Assembly: GCA_000004985.1 (NCBI GenBank)
Contig: GG738850.1
Direction: 5' to 3' (one strand)
Length of the DNA stretch: 64,000 bases
Source of the DNA: Naegleria gruberi
Lineage: Eukaryota
The notes beneath the pieces are model-generated. The model was not told the origin of the DNA. It saw only the letters and a list, made by a program, of their open reading frames with translations, and ran no database searches. Both the position numbers and the translations under genes were made by a program. Positions 1-37,137 of the stretch are shown here, piece after piece (position 1 is the first letter of the stretch; every line of letters begins with the position of its first letter).

Positions 1-67
1 TTTAATAAAAGTCTGAATCACCTCTTTCAGTACTTACTTCGAAGCATTATATAATAGGTTGAGTGAA

Positions 68-1446
68 ATGGATGAATATGGAGAAGAAACTTTGTACATT
101 ATCAAATATTGTTATGAAATGATTGATACAATCCCACCAGGCTTAATTATTAGAGTAATGAATGAGGCACATAAACATGAAATTAAGGAATTGAATGATA
201 TTGCTTGTGATCAAGTGGAAATTACAGAAATTAATTTTGAAGAGTTCATTAATAGTCTTTACGACCATGTAGAAGATGGCTTTGAAATACTGTCTCATTT
301 GCAAACATTGAAGTGCTACTTAGAACTACGTTTAAATAAAAAAATGACAACAAATCCATTGCCAATTCTTGTGCTTGATAATGGTTCAGGATTGAGCAAA
401 GCAGGCTTTTCGGGAGAAGATGCTCCTCGTTCTGTGTTTCCAACAGTGATAGGAAGACAACTTCTCAACAAAAAGAACGTTAGATGTATTGATGCCTTTG
501 TTGGAGAGGAGGCAATAAAGAGAGATCTCTCCTCTGTAAAAAAGTATCCGATTGAGAGAGGAATTATAAAGAATTTTGATGATATGGAAGTGATTTGGAA
601 TCATACATTTTGTAATGAATTGAAGGTTAATTCGGAAAATTGTTGTGTAATGTTGAGTGAAGTTTGTTTGAATCCAAAGGAGAAGCGTGAAAAGATGACT
701 GAAATATTGTTCGAAACTTTTAATGTTTCCGCTCTTTATTGTTTAATGCAGTCAGTTTTGTCTCTGTATGCGTCTGGAAGAGTTACTGGACTAGTGATTG
801 ATTTAGGTGATGGTGTTTCACATACTGTCCCAGTTTATGAGGGATATGCTTTTTTATTATCAAGTTCAAGATTGGATTTAGCTGGAAGAAATTTGACAGA
901 TTACTTAACTACATTATTATTGGAATCAGGGCATAATTTTAGTTCTTCAATTGGAAATTCTAATATTTCAGGACATGAAATTGTAAGGAATATTAAGGAA
1001 AAGTTATGTTATATTGCTTTGGATTTCGATGAAGAATCAAAGAAATCAATTTCATATGAATTACCAGATGGCAGCAAAATAACAGTTGGAAATGAGCGGT
1101 TCAGATGTCCAGAAATATTATTCGAGCCAAATTATTTAGGAATTGAGCGAGATGGAATTCATAAGCTGGCTGCTAGACATTGATTTGAGAGGAGAATTAT
1201 ATTCGAATATTTTACTTTCGGGGGGATCATTCATGCTCGAAGGATTATCTGAAAGACTACACAAAGAACTGACAACCTTAGTACCCATCTCTACCAACAT
1301 TAATATTATTTCTCCTCCAGAGAGAAAGCATTCAGCATGGATTGGTGGAAGCTTACTCTTCCTTTCCAACATTTCAGAGTATGTGGATAAGAAAATACGA
1401 CTATGAAGAGAGTGGCCCTTCAATAATACATAGGAAATCATTGTAG
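68..1446 (+). pseudogene. Divergent actin-like gene with two +1 frame discontinuities near the 3' end, likely a pseudogene. It has an N-terminal extension of about 95 aa before the actin fold.
   Basis: Frame 2 (68-1183) encodes actin motifs ([42 protein letters not shown]). Actin homology continues in frame 0 ([22 protein letters not shown]...[15 protein letters not shown]) and then in frame 1 ([25 protein letters not shown], stop at 1444-1446). Each switch needs one nucleotide skipped, near 1163-1166 and at 1368. Frame 2 starts with TTG at 59 in the ORF track; the first ATG is at 68. Confidence 0.55.
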
Positions 1447-1492
1447 GCAGGCTATCCAATAATCAATTTGTAAATTTTGAAATTGAAAAAAA

Positions 1493-2779
1493 ATGTCTCA
1501 AGATGTTCTCTGCCACGCCTTCAGTTTTCTTGATTATTCCTACACAACGACACTCTCACTAGTTTGCAAGGAGTGGTATCAGATTGCCAACTCAAATGCA
1601 CTGTGGGAATTTTACTTTCATTTATTAACGAATAATAAGAAGGGTAAAACAAGGGTTTCGTCTTGTTCAGTTTCCGTAGATGATTTATTCTGGAAAAACA
1701 AGATTCGGGATAATTTTTCGCAATATGCCTGCAGAATTTCAAAGAAATTGTCATTGGAATCAAAGTGCTATTTGAATTTGAAGTATAAATTTCCTGATAA
1801 TTTCTCATCTCAAGTGGTAAAGATGATTTTATCGAGAATTTTATTGGAAAGTTTGGAATCAACTGACAACTTTGATTTTCCATTCAAAACTCATAAGTTA
1901 TCAGATGATTATGAGGACGGACCACTACATTTCAAAATGAAGTTTAAAATTAGTGGAATTGATGAGCCATTGATCGTGAGATGGTTTGGAATTGTTCAAA
2001 ATGGTTTTTTCTTATTTGGATATTATTACACAAATGGATATTATATATATTTTGCTACAGAGAGTGATGATAAACTTAATGCTAAATATTTTGCAGGATC
2101 TTCTGTTGATCTAAATGGAATAGCTCAACAAGGTCGAGCATTTATTTACCATTTCAACTCGAAAAATATGCCAGCCGATGTTTGGGGAAGACAATATTTG
2201 TGTAGTACTATTCTATCTCACATTGTTCCAACCGTTAAGCAATATGAATTATCCCCAATTGAGTTTGTTCCGTATTGGTGTTTTTTATTTCCATTAATCA
2301 TTCACTCCATGTCAGATAATGCAGTAACTTTTTCAAAAGAATTTGTTAAACACTATCCTAATATCATTTCCAATCGATTAATGTATCATTACATGGCTAA
2401 TTATTATAAGAATAGATACACATTTGATAAGAAAATTGCTTTGATTTTTGAAAATTACCGTCCAAACACTGAAATTCAGAAAAAACTCTGCAAGTGCATT
2501 ATCAAAAACAAAAAGTTGCCTCCTTTCAATCCAAGAAAGAAGCAAGAATCAACTCTAATGCAAGAAACAGTGACTTTGTTGAGAGAAATTATTCCCAGCC
2601 GTACTTTGAAATTTATTTGTGGACAAGCGCCTCTCAATCTAAAACCTGAAGAAGAATTTATTCGAAATGCACAAACATTAGCAACATTTTACAAATTGTT
2701 AAAAAATCCAGAAGAAATGAAGGAAGTATTTCTTAATTACAAGTTTAAAAGACCACACCAGCTCGAACAATTTCCTTAA
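1493..2779 (+). CDS. F-box-like protein, 428 aa, single exon
   Basis: Uninterrupted ORF with ATG at 1493 after an A-run. The N-terminus LCHAFSFLDYSYTTTLSLVCKEWYQIANSNALWEFYF matches the F-box consensus; the rest has no recognisable domain. Confidence 0.55.
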   Translation: MSQDVLCHAFSFLDYSYTTTLSLVCKEWYQIANSNALWEFYFHLLTNNKKGKTRVSSCSVSVDDLFWKNKIRDNFSQYACRISKKLSLESKCYLNLKYKFPDNFSSQVVKMILSRILLESLESTDNFDFPFKTHKLSDDYEDGPLHFKMKFKISGIDEPLIVRWFGIVQNGFFLFGYYYTNGYYIYFATESDDKLNAKYFAGSSVDLNGIAQQGRAFIYHFNSKNMPADVWGRQYLCSTILSHIVPTVKQYELSPIEFVPYWCFLFPLIIHSMSDNAVTFSKEFVKHYPNIISNRLMYHYMANYYKNRYTFDKKIALIFENYRPNTEIQKKLCKCIIKNKKLPPFNPRKKQESTLMQETVTLLREIIPSRTLKFICGQAPLNLKPEEEFIRNAQTLATFYKLLKNPEEMKEVFLNYKFKRPHQLEQFP

Positions 2780-2899
2780 GGTGGCGGTTCGCCTATTTTA
2801 ATTGGAAGTGCAAATGTTGGTTTACAAATATTCGAATATCTATTTTTGGCAAAATGGTAAATTTAGTAATTTTAATAAAAAATCATTTATGAACACAAT

Positions 2900-4849
2900 T
2901 CAAACTTTCTTGTTATTAGTACACTTATTGGGAGAACAAGAACATTTTGATGTACAAGGCTTTCCAGCTTTCTTACATGGACACGCTTTCTTACAGGTGG
3001 AACTCTTGGAACAAGTGCATTTTCCGATCATTCCTTTGCTTGGTGGTGGTGGCTTGGTTTCTTTGTTAGCCTTTCGCAACTCTACTCGCCTAACTTTGTA
3101 CGTTTTAGATTGTTTTCTGATTTTATCTTGTTCATATTTTGCATCCAATTTACGAGCATCAATTTTGGACATTATGAATGGAGCTTCGGTAAATTTTTGA
3201 ATTTTCCTTAATTGACAAAATTTTCCCATTAAGCGTTGCCCTATTGCTAAATCAGCTCTTCCACAATAATTATGACTAAAGTCCAATGTTTTTGGCGTGG
3301 TGTGACAAATGGTACTATGTAATGATTCATTGGTTTGGCTGTTATATTCAGAGTTACAAAATTTGTGACAATATTTGATCCTCTTGTCAAATATTTCTTG
3401 CACTATGATTGCTTCTTCTTTTGTAATTAATTTTTGACTTTTTGTTGTTCCAGGACAACCTTCATCGCATTTTGAGTGATCATTTTGTAAATGATATGGA
3501 TATGCTGTTAATAATTTTTTCAACTTCTTCTCAGCTTCTGAATCAGAGAGAGAACTTGTCATTTTGATACATTTTCTGAATGATTCAACCACAATGACTG
3601 CAACACGAGGAATTCTCTCTTTAGCTTCTTTTCTAACGTTTCTGACAACGTGATTGGGATCTAATTTTTCTTCGGCTGTTGGTTCAAGTTTCTTGATTAT
3701 GGTGGAAACAGTCGAGTCCTTATCATGCACATATGAATTGATCTTGAAATGCAAAAGTCCATGACCTGTTAGTGGAAAAGATTTATGTTGCAATGATGTG
3801 ATAGCCATTTTGCATGCCTCTGGTTCCATTAATTTGGAAGCGCCAACAAATATATCTAGACAACCTTTTAAGGCAATGCTACGCTTCTTTAAAGTTCTCT
3901 TCTTAATCACATGTGATCTTTCAATAATTTTTTTGAATTTAGTTTCGAACACAATTAATGTACATTCGTGAGCATTTCGTCTTGAAGAATATCTTGCATC
4001 AACAGAAATATCCAAAGGGATAGCAAAACCACAGACGTACAAATAAATTATTGCCACAACTTCATTCCCTAAATAATAAGACTTTCCACAAATCTTAATT
4101 TCACAAAGCATGAACAAGGAAACAGCTGCCTTCATTCTCTGATATGCCACAGAAAACAATTCCTCGTTCATTTCTTGATTTAACAATCTACTCATATTGT
4201 TCCATAACTTGTTAGCATATTGATAATAAACTCCTTTGCTAACTAACGGTAATTCCACAACCTTTGAAAATGTTGACAATGATTCATAAGTACCTGATGA
4301 CAGTTCGTACGACTGAATGATATGTTTGTTCAGTTTAAGATCTTTTGGACACGTTCTGAAAGTGTACGTCTTCTTACAATTGCTGCAAGAAAAAATCAAC
4401 GTCTGCTCAAAGCCATACTTGGTAATACTTTTAAAAGGTACATCACTATTATGGCAACAAGTGCAATGCTTTGGTTTAATACATTGAATGAGGTACTCTG
4501 TTGGTATGATGGATAGATTGGAATCTATTTTCTCAATGATTTCATTTCTGTCAAGTGGTGCTATAGTTCCAATAGTGGTTTCAGAATGTAAATGAAATTG
4601 ATAAGATTGATTTTGAGTAGAGGTATCGTGTTGCACTGTTTGAATTGTCCTCAAGTTTGAGTTTGTGAATTTTTTCTCCATTTCATGATATTTGTCAAGA
4701 AATTGCTTATAATGTCGACAACAAATAGTGCCATTCAGTTCCTTGTGGTGAATAGGAACTTTGCCAACAAATCCATTCTTTACATTATAGAATCTTGGTG
4801 ACAAAACACCTGATTTTACTACGCACACAAAACACAACTCTCTTTTCAT
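2900..4849 (-). CDS. Hypothetical 649-aa protein with Cys/His-rich N-terminal and central regions and a C-terminal tesmin/TSO1-like CXC cysteine cluster
   Basis: Single long ORF with ATG at 4849 (reverse complement). The C-terminus CTCSKSSTCKKACPCKKAGKPCTSKCSCSPNKC fits the CXC pattern C-X-C-X5-C-X3-C-X-C-X6-C-X3-C-X-C-X4-C. The N-terminus has CFVC...CCRHY zinc-finger-like spacing. The central region contains acidic residues in a pattern suggestive of a DDE-like fold, but nothing could be aligned by eye. Confidence 0.5.
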   Translation of the reverse strand: MKRELCFVCVVKSGVLSPRFYNVKNGFVGKVPIHHKELNGTICCRHYKQFLDKYHEMEKKFTNSNLRTIQTVQHDTSTQNQSYQFHLHSETTIGTIAPLDRNEIIEKIDSNLSIIPTEYLIQCIKPKHCTCCHNSDVPFKSITKYGFEQTLIFSCSNCKKTYTFRTCPKDLKLNKHIIQSYELSSGTYESLSTFSKVVELPLVSKGVYYQYANKLWNNMSRLLNQEMNEELFSVAYQRMKAAVSLFMLCEIKICGKSYYLGNEVVAIIYLYVCGFAIPLDISVDARYSSRRNAHECTLIVFETKFKKIIERSHVIKKRTLKKRSIALKGCLDIFVGASKLMEPEACKMAITSLQHKSFPLTGHGLLHFKINSYVHDKDSTVSTIIKKLEPTAEEKLDPNHVVRNVRKEAKERIPRVAVIVVESFRKCIKMTSSLSDSEAEKKLKKLLTAYPYHLQNDHSKCDEGCPGTTKSQKLITKEEAIIVQEIFDKRIKYCHKFCNSEYNSQTNESLHSTICHTTPKTLDFSHNYCGRADLAIGQRLMGKFCQLRKIQKFTEAPFIMSKIDARKLDAKYEQDKIRKQSKTYKVRRVELRKANKETKPPPPSKGMIGKCTCSKSSTCKKACPCKKAGKPCTSKCSCSPNKCTNNKKV

Positions 4850-5323
4850 TTTTTTGTGATTATTTTGTTGTTTGATTATTTTGTGTGTATTTCAAAACAG
4901 CCAAACTTTGCTTAAAATCACAATCAAAGCATTAGCAAACATCTCGGAAACAATTCATTAGATAGACAACTTGTAGTTGGATCGTGTGTATTCTCTGATG
5001 AGTGAAACTAGGTGAAACTGGCACAGTAACATTCAAATTATAAATAACAAAAATTAAATATTTGTGATGACGATAGAAAATTGATGATTAAAAACTTGAA
5101 GAGTATTAGACATCAAACAGGCAAGCAGAATAAAAGATGAATTGAAGATGGTTTATAATAGCTTGTCCAATGCGAGTGTAAAGGAGCAAAATTGTATTTC
5201 ATTGCAAACATTTTTTTTTTCATTGAAGGAATATTTTTGGAAGACCCACCTTAACAAACTTTACAAAACCTTGTAAGTGAATTTAACTGTTGATTAAAAA
5301 TAGCTGGAAAAAATTTAAAAAAA

Positions 5324-6064
5324 ATGAGAACAAGGATTGTGATTGGAAAGCATTCATTTCAATCCATTGAAGATGAACAACACAAATCGGACAAGAAACA
5401 ATTAAAAAGTAAACTAACAAAAGAGTTTGAATCTTCCGAAGATATTTTGAAAAGCTTTGATGACTTGAAGGGAGTTATTGAAAACTATTTGAAAGAATTT
5501 GATGATCAAATAGAAATAGCTACTTTTAGAATTACTGCTAGAATAAAAACCACAACTACGAGACAAAAACCAATTGGTTTGAGAGATGAAGGTGATTTCA
5601 GCAAATTAGTTGAGTTGGTGAAAATGTTGAATGATCAAGAAGAAGAGGCCATGTTGACCATCAAGTTGGATAGTAAGGAAAAGAAACATCATAAAAAACA
5701 TAAGAAGGAGAAGAGAAAACGAAATGAAGTGGCAGACGAAGATGATGGTAGTGATGAAGAAATTGATAACAAGAAGAAGCAAATTAAAACACTAACAGAA
5801 ATGATTGAAAATAGCAAGCAACAGTTGAAGGGTTTGCAATCTGAATTGAGTGAGCTTAAGGTGATGAAATCTAATGAAAATCAAATAACTGGTATGATGA
5901 ATAGTGTATCACTTGATTCTCAACCAAAGGAAGAGAATACTTCATCTTCTAAAACAATTGAAGAGCGTCAGCAAATCAAAAGAGAAAGAAAGAATAAGAA
6001 AGAAAGAAAACATGACAAACATGGTAAAGATAAATATGAGAAAAAGAAGAAACATCTCAAGTAA
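5324..6064 (+). CDS. Lys/Glu-rich coiled-coil protein, 246 aa
   Basis: ORF with ATG at 5324 after aaaaaaa. Charged low-complexity C-terminal half (KKHHKKHKKEKRKR...). No recognisable domain. Confidence 0.4.
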   Translation: MRTRIVIGKHSFQSIEDEQHKSDKKQLKSKLTKEFESSEDILKSFDDLKGVIENYLKEFDDQIEIATFRITARIKTTTTRQKPIGLRDEGDFSKLVELVKMLNDQEEEAMLTIKLDSKEKKHHKKHKKEKRKRNEVADEDDGSDEEIDNKKKQIKTLTEMIENSKQQLKGLQSELSELKVMKSNENQITGMMNSVSLDSQPKEENTSSSKTIEERQQIKRERKNKKERKHDKHGKDKYEKKKKHLK

Positions 6065-32073: not shown

Positions 32074-34920
32074 TTATTGTTTTTGTTCTTCTGTTTTCTT
32101 TTCTTCTTCAGCCTTCTTCTTTGCTGCTTCTTCTTCCTCTAATTCCTTTTGTTGGAAATCTTTGGTCTTCAAATAAGCATCGAATTGAGCATCATTACCA
32201 AATGGTCTATGACCGAGCACATCAACCATGTCTTGCGCATCAATCTTTTCCTTTTCCAGTAATAATTTGGCAACTGAAACCATACCATCTTTGTGTTTCA
32301 TCAAGAGTTCTTCAGTTCTTTGATAAGCTTCAACAACCATTCTCTTAATTTCATGATCAATTAATCTAGCTGTTTGGGCACTGTATGGTTTTTCAGCTTG
32401 GAATCCATCATTTGTATCTGGGAATGAAACGTTACCAATCTTATCACTCATACCATACTTAGTAATCATTTGACTGGCAATTTCAGTGACCTTTTGTAAA
32501 TCGTTTTGAGCACCAGTTGACAAGTGACCGAATATTATCTTTTCAGCAGCTCTACCACCAAGAGCAAGACACATAAAGTCAAATAATTGTTCCTTTGTAG
32601 TAATATATCTTTCTGATGGAAGGTATTGAGCATAACCCAAAGCACCTGAACCTCTTGGTACAATGGAAACCTTCAAAAGTGGGTCAGTATGTTCCAAATA
32701 CCAACCAGCAACAGCGTGACCAGCTTCGTGGTGAGCAACAATGTTTCTTTCTTCTGGAGATAAAACCTTATTCTTCTTTTCCAAACCACCGATAATCTTA
32801 TCAATAGCTTGTTCGAAATGACGCATTGTAACATGATCAGATCCTTCTCTAGATGCAATAAGAGCTGCTTCGTTACAAACGTTAGCAATATCAGCACCAG
32901 AGAAACCTGGAGTAAGAGTAGCAAGACGAGTAGCGTATTCCTCTGCTGGTTTAGCCAAAACAATACCCTTCATGTGAACCTTGAAGATTTCTTCTCTACC
33001 CTTAATGTCAGCAATTGAAACATCAATGGATCTATCAAAACGACCAGGTCTTGTAAGAGCCTTATCCAAAATTTCAGATCTGTTTGTAGCGGCCAAGACA
33101 ACTACACCAGTAGCTGGAGTAAAACCGTCCATTTCAACAAGCAATTGATTGAGAGTATTTTCTCTTTCATCGTTTCTACCCATGAATTTACCTGTGCCTC
33201 TTTGTCTACCTACAGCATCAATTTCATCAATGAAAATAATAGATGGAGCATTATCCTTAGCTTCTTTGAATAATTTACGAACTCTTGCTGGACCAACACC
33301 AACAACCATTTCAACAAATTCAGAACCGGAAATACTATAGAATGGAACACCAGCCTCACCAGCAACTGCCTTTGCCAACAATGTCTTACCAGTACCTGGA
33401 GGACCAACAAGCAATGCACCCTTTGGAATTCTAGCACCAATATCTCTGAACTTCTTTGGATTCTTCAAAAAGTCGACAAATTCTGTAATTTCTCTCTTGG
33501 CTTCATCGAGACCAGCAACATCTTTGAATTTTACAGAGTGTTGAGATGTAGCCTTAAATGATTTGGTGAACATATTAGTTGGATCCATAGCTCCTAAACC
33601 ACCACCTCTTCCTGGCATTCTCTTGTAAGCATAGTACAATAAACTACCAATAATGAGCAAATGAATAGCTGCTTGAATGGTTTGAGCAAAGTTCTTTTGT
33701 TCCTTTCCTGAATAGAAAATTTCAATACCAGAAACTTGAACACCATTTTGGTGCATTTCTTCCAATAAATCATAATATCTTCTTTCAAAGCTATCACCAC
33801 CAAATCCAATGCTGTATTCTCTTCCTTCCTTTGTTGTGACTGTTGTAGAGCGTTCAAGAATAGTGATCTTACGAACGTTTTGAGTTCTCAAATCTTGACT
33901 GAAATCATCAAAAGATGCTGTATAACCAGTTCCTTGATGTAATTGTTGGTATGAAGTGGCAATCATGATCAAAGTGACGAAAAGCATACCATAGAACATG
34001 TAGTCCAATACGCTCATTTTTGGTTTGTCTTTTTCTTCTCCTGATTCTTGCTTTACTGTTTCAGTTTTAACTTCTTCCTTTGGCTTAATCGTACCCAATT
34101 TCAAGTTTGAATGGACAGATTCTCCTTTTTTGACCTCGTGTGAAATAATTTTACCCTTTTCGGCAGCTCTGACATTAATTCTTTGAGGAGTATCTTCATC
34201 TGTATATTTGACTTCAATTTCAGCAATAACTTCACCTTCAAAAACTTCATCTTCAACAAATTTGAACCATTTGTTAATGTATGCGCTTTCAACATTATCT
34301 CCCAAGTGTGGAACAGTAATATCAATTTTAGCTGGCTTCTTTTCCTTCTTTTCATCATTTTCTTTTTCTTCCTTGTCCTTCTGTTCCTTCTTTTCTTTCT
34401 TTTCTTTCTTTTCTTTCTTCTCTTCAGATTTCTTTTCGGAAGTCTTTTCCTCCTGTTCAACTTTTTCTTCAGTTTCGGAAGTCTTTTCCTCCTTCTTTTC
34501 TTCCTTCTTTACTTCCTCTTTTTGATCCGATTCAGATGATTCCTTTCGTTTAAAGTTACCAAATCCTTTTGGTGTTGAATAGAATCTTTTAGATACAAAA
34601 TTGGTCAATACAAAGTTGATGTTTTTCTTAGAGAAAATATTTCTTTCTGTTTTTCTAGACAAAGGATATGAACTCTTTTCACTAGTATTAATATATTCAA
34701 TATTTCCGTATGATGAAAGATATTCTTGTTGGAATGATGGAAGACGATTAATTACAGCCATAATATTCTTAAAAGATGAATATCTTAAATTAAATAAACC
34801 ATTATTACTATTCACTAATCCACTTCTTTCCCATAATTTTTCAGCCCAAGCAGGTAAGTTGATTCGATTCATCAACGAACCAGCCTGCAAACCCACGGCC
34901 TTCATTTGTTGTTGGAACAT
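32074..34920 (-). CDS. Mitochondrial m-AAA protease (FtsH/AFG3L2/Yta12 family) with a Lys/Glu-rich N-terminal extension, 948 aa
   Basis: AAA+ Walker A (GPPGTGKTLLAKAVAGEAGVPF), Walker B (IIFIDEIDAV), second region of homology (ATNRSEILDKALTRPGRFDR), zinc-metalloprotease HEAGHA, and two TM segments flanking an intermembrane-space domain. N-terminal presequence-like start. The 34100-34540 region encodes an EKKEEKK low-complexity tract. Confidence 0.9.
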   Translation of the reverse strand: MFQQQMKAVGLQAGSLMNRINLPAWAEKLWERSGLVNSNNGLFNLRYSSFKNIMAVINRLPSFQQEYLSSYGNIEYINTSEKSSYPLSRKTERNIFSKKNINFVLTNFVSKRFYSTPKGFGNFKRKESSESDQKEEVKKEEKKEEKTSETEEKVEQEEKTSEKKSEEKKEKKEKKEKKEQKDKEEKENDEKKEKKPAKIDITVPHLGDNVESAYINKWFKFVEDEVFEGEVIAEIEVKYTDEDTPQRINVRAAEKGKIISHEVKKGESVHSNLKLGTIKPKEEVKTETVKQESGEEKDKPKMSVLDYMFYGMLFVTLIMIATSYQQLHQGTGYTASFDDFSQDLRTQNVRKITILERSTTVTTKEGREYSIGFGGDSFERRYYDLLEEMHQNGVQVSGIEIFYSGKEQKNFAQTIQAAIHLLIIGSLLYYAYKRMPGRGGGLGAMDPTNMFTKSFKATSQHSVKFKDVAGLDEAKREITEFVDFLKNPKKFRDIGARIPKGALLVGPPGTGKTLLAKAVAGEAGVPFYSISGSEFVEMVVGVGPARVRKLFKEAKDNAPSIIFIDEIDAVGRQRGTGKFMGRNDERENTLNQLLVEMDGFTPATGVVVLAATNRSEILDKALTRPGRFDRSIDVSIADIKGREEIFKVHMKGIVLAKPAEEYATRLATLTPGFSGADIANVCNEAALIASREGSDHVTMRHFEQAIDKIIGGLEKKNKVLSPEERNIVAHHEAGHAVAGWYLEHTDPLLKVSIVPRGSGALGYAQYLPSERYITTKEQLFDFMCLALGGRAAEKIIFGHLSTGAQNDLQKVTEIASQMITKYGMSDKIGNVSFPDTNDGFQAEKPYSAQTARLIDHEIKRMVVEAYQRTEELLMKHKDGMVSVAKLLLEKEKIDAQDMVDVLGHRPFGNDAQFDAYLKTKDFQQKELEEEEAAKKKAEEEKKTEEQKQ

Positions 34921-36762: not shown

Positions 36763-37137
36763 TTATGAAAATGGTGGTCCTCAATGCATCAATAAAAACA
36801 TGCTTCCAACTTTGAAGCATATGTTGATAATAAGTAAAATCTTTATTTGCAAAAAGACTACAGCACCACAGGTTCCCAAGTTGTCTCCAACCTCAGTACT
36901 GATGTGGCTCGACGATGCTTAACTTCTCAAATCGGACGGGATGAGGTGCATGAATCGTGATATGGCTGTAGCATTCACTTTCGCAATTTCTGAAATTTTA
37001 ATCTAGCACAATCAGTTTTTGTTTCATTTATTGAGCCTTTTTCAAATTAATTATGGAAACAAACCTCTGTCATTCACCACCGAATGTTTTCTTTTTGGAT
37101 GGAATTACTTAGAATAATTTATTCTATTGACCAGATA

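Follow-up and report, generated by a model that had tools for sequence, protein, structure and literature searches.

A probable non-processed pseudogene of a divergent actin, annotated as a protein-coding gene, in the Naegleria gruberi reference genome

The actins and Arps of Naegleria gruberi number 78 (PMC7594500), and a decayed paralog is ordinary for so large a gene family. Among the closest described systems are the non-processed pseudogenes of expanded cytoskeletal families, such as the actins of Dictyostelium and Naegleria, which are found in their original context beside a conserved neighbour, carry few and recent disabling indels, and stay highly similar to a functional copy within a large family. 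A formal resemblance also exists to the genes with programmed +1 frameshifts (antizyme, ABP140 and EST3 of yeast, Euplotes), wherein successive frames are read, each of them at +1. Two protein families complete the picture: the conventional actins (Pfam PF00022) and the BTB/POZ family of Naegleria, with members such as C9374_005517 of N. lovaniensis and NAEGRDRAFT_53089 of N. gruberi.

The locus presented here touches on all four. It lies at the start of a 64-kb stretch of N. gruberi DNA (64,000 nt; the window), where positions 344-1446 (+) very probably correspond to a non-processed pseudogene, decaying in place in the N. gruberi reference, of a lineage-specific and divergent actin paralog. 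With the pseudogenes mentioned above it shares the kept context and neighbour, the few recent lesions, the similarity to an intact copy and the large family, and with the programmed genes the succession of frames at +1. This reading derives from comparative sequence analysis, and in particular from an intact copy of the same gene found in a metagenome.

An actin spread over three frames and its intact ortholog

Translation of window positions 1-1500 in all three forward frames shows actin-like segments in frames 2, 3 and 1. The Pfam Actin profile (PF00022) matched frame 2 (68-1180) with E=2.8e-73 and 247.3 bits, and frame 3 (1164-1367) with E=5.1e-19 and 68.6 bits. Both scores are above the gathering cut-off of 27 and far beyond chance, which places the two segments in the actin family. 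With the intact ortholog described below as the tblastn query, frame 2 aligned from 344 to 1177 at 98.6% identity (ortholog residues 1-277), frame 3 from 1173 to 1358 at 96.8%, and frame 1 from 1357 to 1443 at 96.6% (residues 344-372). Profile and tblastn searches agree in this way with the original prediction, which had read actin homology through three frames in order.

Segment A of the pseudogene (344-1175, +) occupies frame 2, from the ancestral ATG at 344-346 to ...GIHKLAA; past the segment this frame reads ...GIHKLAARH and stops at the TGA of 1181-1183. Segment B (1176-1358, +), recognised by both Pfam Actin and tblastn, begins with DIDLRGELY... in frame 3, a frame that runs on beyond the segment to a TGA at 1404-1406. 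Segment C (1357-1446, +) consists of 29 residues and a stop codon in frame 1. The ancestral stop position, 1444-1446, is TAG in the window and TAA in the ortholog; translation and actin alignment bear out the earlier claim that the homology finishes at this stop, where actin itself ends. The whole fold is therefore contained in a single ORF in the ortholog and divided among three frames in the window copy, whose longest translatable product ends at 1181-1183, so that roughly one quarter of the actin fold is missing.

When the stitched three-frame protein was used as a query, two close relatives stood out among thousands of actins. One of them (P0042) is NAEGRDRAFT_60310 of N. gruberi, a "hypothetical protein" of 337 aa. 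The translation of window positions 344-1098 joined to 1148-1406 equals this protein exactly; the window is thus in accord with the N. gruberi reference sequence. The other (P0032) is a protein of 372 aa encoded by one continuous, intact ORF in an ENA metagenome contig of 3,027 nt (L001; ERZ929261 / ERR1078381, PRJEB11402). The ATG at 344 is the start of both. In a blastn comparison of the contig with window 302-2041, 1718 of 1760 bases were identical (98%), and the two sequences have in common the downstream spacer and the gene behind it, an intact F-box gene (1493-2779, +; Pfam F-box) that constitutes the syntenic downstream neighbour. It should be kept in mind that L001 is a metagenome assembly, the upstream part of which could be chimeric or itself rearranged. 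Look-ups of the exact products (reference model, F-box protein and frame-2 ORF) returned no contigs, scanning metagenomes for a leader and a coding pattern gave no match, and a search for other ORFs with the frameshift signature brought up one unrelated actin fragment only.

The locus had been proposed to be a divergent actin paralog, with the choice between actin, ARP1 and ARP2 left for a protein search. Among PDB sequences, the best 60 matches were all conventional actins, at ~466 bits. The identity of the intact ortholog to the actins used for comparison ranges from 59 to 62%, and its length is similar, 372 aa vs 375. Actins are thus the closest proteins and Arp-specific insertions are absent, as judged from the PDB matches, the identity and the length; on these grounds the proposal holds, and the locus is taken as a divergent actin, not as an Arp1 or Arp2. 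Like a conventional actin (examples are the Naegleria actin-like P0117 and P0119, and the solved Plasmodium Actin-1 and beta-actin), the ortholog matches the PF00022 model over its full length, and the DNGSG and DxGDG phosphate-binding motifs, the SGG motif and a C-terminus at the same position are all present. Among the other matches listed from a database of 5.8 billion sequences, no protein is more than 59% identical to the stitched query by BLASTP, and the paralog appears to be specific to the N. gruberi lineage.

Besides the TAG/TAA difference at the stop, 10 substitutions separate the actin coding sequences of the window and the contig. They are equally divided (5 synonymous, 5 non-synonymous), and the resulting dN/dS of ~0.28, in which both lineages are summed and the numbers are small, is indistinguishable from the ~0.16 of the F-box neighbour, whose 549 aligned nt of coding sequence show 5 substitutions and no indel. 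Relaxed constraint is not apparent in these substitutions, which would mean either that the inactivation was recent or that the substitutions are too few to tell. With 96-98% identity to the intact protein kept in the broken segments, the inactivation seems recent.

Such a small distance can also be looked at in another way. An intact version at only ~1-2% divergence, and substitutions so few as to suggest a very recent inactivation, would suit a null allele or haplotype whose second, intact allele resides in the same polyploid or heterozygous cell, in which case the gene would be polymorphic and not lost. Allelic heterozygosity has reportedly been observed in NEG-M. However, L001 comes from a metagenome and not from NEG-M, it is wholly different upstream of position 302, beyond any allelic SNP variation, and the database matches listed include no further N. 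gruberi protein of the kind. We regard a null allele as unlikely, and a paralog inactivated in its place remains the preferred reading.

Lesions of the gene and the model that spans them

According to the original prediction, the reading frame switched at about 1163-1166 and again at 1368, each time by one skipped nucleotide and at neither site within a homopolymer. Alignment to the ortholog's contig relocates both switches and changes their nature. The first is a 17-nt deletion at 1175/1176 (+), where the ortholog has GATCTATTCGAAACTGT; homology in frame 2 runs through GIHKLAAR up to this point, and the string ISWLL of frame 3, previously counted as actin, is not homologous. The deletion is flanked by a 2-nt GA microhomology, takes out the residues RSIRNC and shifts the frame by a net +1. 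The second is a 2-nt deletion (1355-1360, +), also net +1, in which one CT has gone from CTCTCT, with its exact position ambiguous within the repeat; frame 1 reads SSFPTFQ from 1357 on. A repeat is involved at this site, which lost one unit of (CT)3. A third difference, an AAA insertion in an A run (538-540, +), keeps the frame and adds one extra Lys.

At the first site the ortholog's GIHKMAARSIRNCDIDLR aligns without gaps against GIHETTFNSIGKCDIDIR of actin, and at the second its GGSLLSSLPTFQ does so against GGSILASLSTFQ. At the AAA site, V-KYPIE of the ortholog pairs with L-KYPIE of the actins, and the additional residue exists only in the window. Conventional actins (n=4 aligned) are gapless to the ortholog at all three indel sites, and the window moreover carries S301F, a Phe at the conserved Ser/Thr of SGG(S/T)(S/T)M. 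The gapless alignment at the indels and this replacement indicate together that the intact state is ancestral and that of the window is derived. We infer that both deletions are of the slippage type, GA microhomology at the first site and (CT)3 at the second being typical of replication slippage.

The two deletions and the premature stops that follow them (1181-1183 and 1404-1406) are disabling mutations of a gene that has otherwise kept its genomic context, with spacer and F-box neighbour as in the contig and free of a poly(A) tract or any other mark of retroposition. The suggestion of a decaying paralog, made originally from the letters of the window, gains support from the 98%-identical syntenic ortholog, from the ancestral state and from the 17-nt deletion.

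A gene that is intact in so close a relative, and whose dN/dS of ~0.28 fits a gene under constraint, could conceivably be intact in N. gruberi too, if consensus errors had left the scaffold without 17 nt and 2 nt; an error of assembly or sequencing would be more plausible for the 2-nt site. Nevertheless, a clean loss of 17 nt with microhomology would be unusual for an error of base calling or consensus, and the reference genome is reportedly a Sanger one, at about 8x. Moreover, the indels found in the 1760 aligned bases are unevenly placed, three in the 1.1 kb of actin coding sequence, one in the intergenic spacer and none in the adjoining 549 nt of the F-box coding sequence, which provides an internal check on the quality of the assembly. 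The rearrangement upstream, beside the relic of another gene, likewise fits a degenerating region, and an error as the source of both lesions is clearly improbable.

The fact that both shifts are net +1 recalls the possibility of a frame restored in expression, whereby +1 ribosomal frameshifting, very short introns or RNA editing would still yield a functional actin. Frame 2 ends as CAU-UGA-U, superficially like the UCC-UGA-U of the antizyme type, and the reference annotation crosses the first site with a GT..AG intron. However, the ortholog is read in a single frame, so the shift is not conserved, and relative to the ancestral sequence the window has simply lost 17 and 2 nt. The frame changes at deletion junctions, with stops 6 and 46 nt onward, and in the absence of a shift motif; the second switch (1355-1360) has neither a stop nor a slippery motif. 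The six missing residues could not be recovered by any recoding, the region 1150-1190 offers no GT for a local intron, and the annotated intron of 49 nt cuts out 16 conserved residues. The idea of an antizyme-like +1 shift at CAU-UGA-U was rejected, as the ortholog shows a plain deletion. We judge restoration of the frame to be extremely improbable, and return to the pseudogene.

The annotated intron of NAEGRDRAFT_60310 (1099-1147, +), with 49 nt and GT..AG borders, takes the model from frame 2 to frame 3. The part removed by a spliceosomal intron should be non-coding and unconserved as protein; the 16 residues removed in this case recur unchanged in the intact ortholog, and every actin compared conserves them. 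In the light of that conservation, the intron is best described as an invented annotation device that bridges the first frameshift. From there the model continues in frame 3 to a false C-terminus at the stop of 1404-1406. The reference annotation masks in this manner the frameshifts of the locus, and lists as a protein what we read as a pseudogene. No mention of NAEGRDRAFT_60310 or of the metagenome project PRJEB11402 was found in the literature, and the ID 60310 is absent from PMC7594500. NAEGRDRAFT_60310 should carry a pseudogene flag, given the fictitious intron and the false C-terminus of its 337-aa product, and counts of Naegleria actins that take it in would be one too many. The case also illustrates how automatic gene models can conceal frameshifts with short introns.

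A BTB/POZ relic upstream of the actin start

An N-terminal extension of roughly 95 residues had been described as part of the actin-like protein. The ORF itself is real, since frame 2 is open from position 17 and contains ATGs at 68 and 344. Its attribution to actin, on the other hand, does not stand, because the extension is a BTB/POZ fragment. A relic of a gene of this family occupies window positions 2-301 (+) in frame 2, comprising the distal half of the BTB domain together with the region that follows, with homology from 17 to 295 at 30-50% identity to the Naegleria BTB/POZ family. A word-indexed search of the extension in 5.8 billion sequences had given no match, and it was a full HMMER scan that revealed the family: in 1.84 billion representatives, phmmer recovered 12 relatives, whose sources are N. 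lovaniensis, N. gruberi and ENA contigs, among them P0121 (E=6.4e-12) and P0122 (E=1.2e-10). The best two BTB-family matches are 46-50% identical, query residues 3-93 corresponding to match residues ~206-303. These relatives carry Pfam BTB/POZ domains, some of them together with ankyrin repeats. Pfam gave no BTB match on the window ORF, in which the PF00651 domain is not complete, and the 5′ part of the relic, including the rest of that domain, would lie to the left of the window edge.

An in-frame TGA (14-16) near the left end of the relic falls inside the BTB homology, or else is intronic, within an intron ending at the cag of 28-30; a 20-nt intron at 11-30 that would remove this TGA was rejected as too short and frame-breaking. 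At the opposite end, the homology stops 3 codons short of the breakpoint at 301/302. Eight out of 9 relatives extend 25-45 residues further, and the remaining one (P0124) terminates close to the position that corresponds to the breakpoint; it is likely that the relic is truncated at its 3′ end.

The breakpoint at 301/302 separates 98% identity to the contig, on its right, from unrelated sequence on its left. The blastn alignment begins at window 302, equivalent to L001 position 1271 and 42 nt before the ATG; window 1-301 has no match in the contig, and positions 1-1270 of the contig have none anywhere in the window. The 42 nt between the breakpoint and the ATG (302-343, +) form a leader common to both copies, identical to L001 1271-1312 at 41 of 42 positions, which probably represents an actin 5′ UTR or proximal promoter. 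In the window, the frame of the BTB relic runs through this leader by chance. In the contig, an in-frame TAG is located just ahead of the leader, 16 codons upstream of the actin ATG. These observations (BTB homology, the break at 301/302, a start at 344 in both ortholog and reference model, and the upstream TAG) lead us to consider the extension as a relic of another gene, whose frame coincides by chance with that of the actin ATG (344) and which is not part of actin.

The left part of the contig has features of its own. Nothing in the 64-kb window corresponds to the gene that precedes the intact actin (L001 1-945, +; probable start MPAKTKNEST...), which means that left of window position 302 the structure of the two genomes is different. 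The spacer between that gene and the actin contains a tRNA-like string (L001 1118-1165, GCCCGTCTAGCTCAGTCGGTA...), absent from the window, in which ARAGORN called no tRNA; it may be a tRNA-derived fragment or a SINE-like relic.

An ORF shared by relic and actin could, in principle, have become a gene. Its 371 codons (68-1183) would join a BTB C-terminal fragment to actin residues 1-279 in a new fusion protein; the ORF is uninterrupted, has an ATG at 68 and a coding-like codon usage throughout, with 0.34 bits/codon for 68-343 vs 0.31 for the actin part and ~0 in other frames. A recent relic, however, would show the same codon usage. Moreover, the BTB part begins in mid-domain, the actin part is without the C-terminal quarter of the fold, the extension scored against no protein in the word-indexed search of 5.8 billion sequences, and the downstream segments, 96-97% identical to the ortholog in other frames, point to recent breakage. 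A functional chimera is very improbable on this evidence. There is similarly scant probability that the locus is alive in some form, be it as that fusion, as a truncated actin whose role would be regulatory or dominant-negative, or as a shortened actin produced by bypassing the shifts. If true, a live fusion or truncated actin, or bypassed shifts, would be the first for heterolobosean nuclear genes.

For a pseudogene, a simple succession of events may be proposed. A rearrangement at 301/302, in the direction that we infer, would have set the fragment of the BTB gene beside the actin leader, and would probably have taken away the actin promoter. Two slippage-type deletions would have broken the actin frame, either before or after the silencing. 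Since N. gruberi possesses 78 genes for actins and Arps, the loss of one paralog could be tolerated, and no recoding mechanism would be required.

The surroundings of the locus are those of a eukaryotic genome. The window has a G+C content of ~33% and dense ORFs on both strands, and its Pfam content is eukaryotic (augmin HAUS4, CCDC81-like, FtsH, F-box, TPR, VWA and Mutator-like transposase). A phage or giant-virus origin was rejected on the basis of this gene content and of a megablast search of window 1-6000 against phages, which gave no match. A 649-aa ORF (2900-4849, -) corresponds to a Mutator-like transposase (PF20700, E=1.3e-18) and lies ~1.4 kb downstream of the pseudogene, past the F-box gene; this nearby element could be related to the local rearrangement. 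Farther along, a full-length 5S rRNA gene (36855-36973, -; Rfam RF00001, 96.4 bits) stands among protein-coding genes, and is therefore a dispersed copy and not part of an rDNA unit. An ORF of 948 aa (32074-34920, -) encodes an FtsH-type AAA protease with an additional weak biotin/lipoyl-domain match, and its N-terminal coding region overlaps short tandem repeats of the TTCTTTTCT type (34224-34522). Stop-free stretches of at least 110 codons number 72 in the six frames of the window, vs ~2 expected in shuffled sequence, and several ORFs of at least 100 aa run antisense to longer ones; as a consequence, ORF length alone is weak evidence for a gene in N. gruberi.

The locus beside known systems

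The locus can be seen as a small example of a very recent gene loss in a redundant cytoskeletal family, with little importance outside annotation. Its comparison with the BTB/POZ family of Naegleria is that of a part with the whole. The relic aligns with the BTB domain in its second half and with the stretch behind it; unlike members of the family, it is visible in the window only as a fragment, with the TGA at 14-16 or an intron there, and runs on to the actin ATG without a stop codon of its own, and unlike most of them it is without 25-45 C-terminal residues.

With respect to the conventional actins, the paralog differs in that its DNase-I-loop region is shortened, six residues (GNSNIS) are inserted and seven are deleted after DFDEE, and the window copy differs further in being split by two frameshifting deletions. 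Unlike those of the programmed +1 frameshift genes, the shifts of this locus are not conserved, were born from deletions and lack a shift-prone motif where the frame switches. As for the non-processed pseudogenes of expanded cytoskeletal families, the locus departs from their usual members in two respects: a BTB-family gene relic is joined to it in frame, and it is listed as protein-coding, under the name of NAEGRDRAFT_60310, by means of an invented intron.
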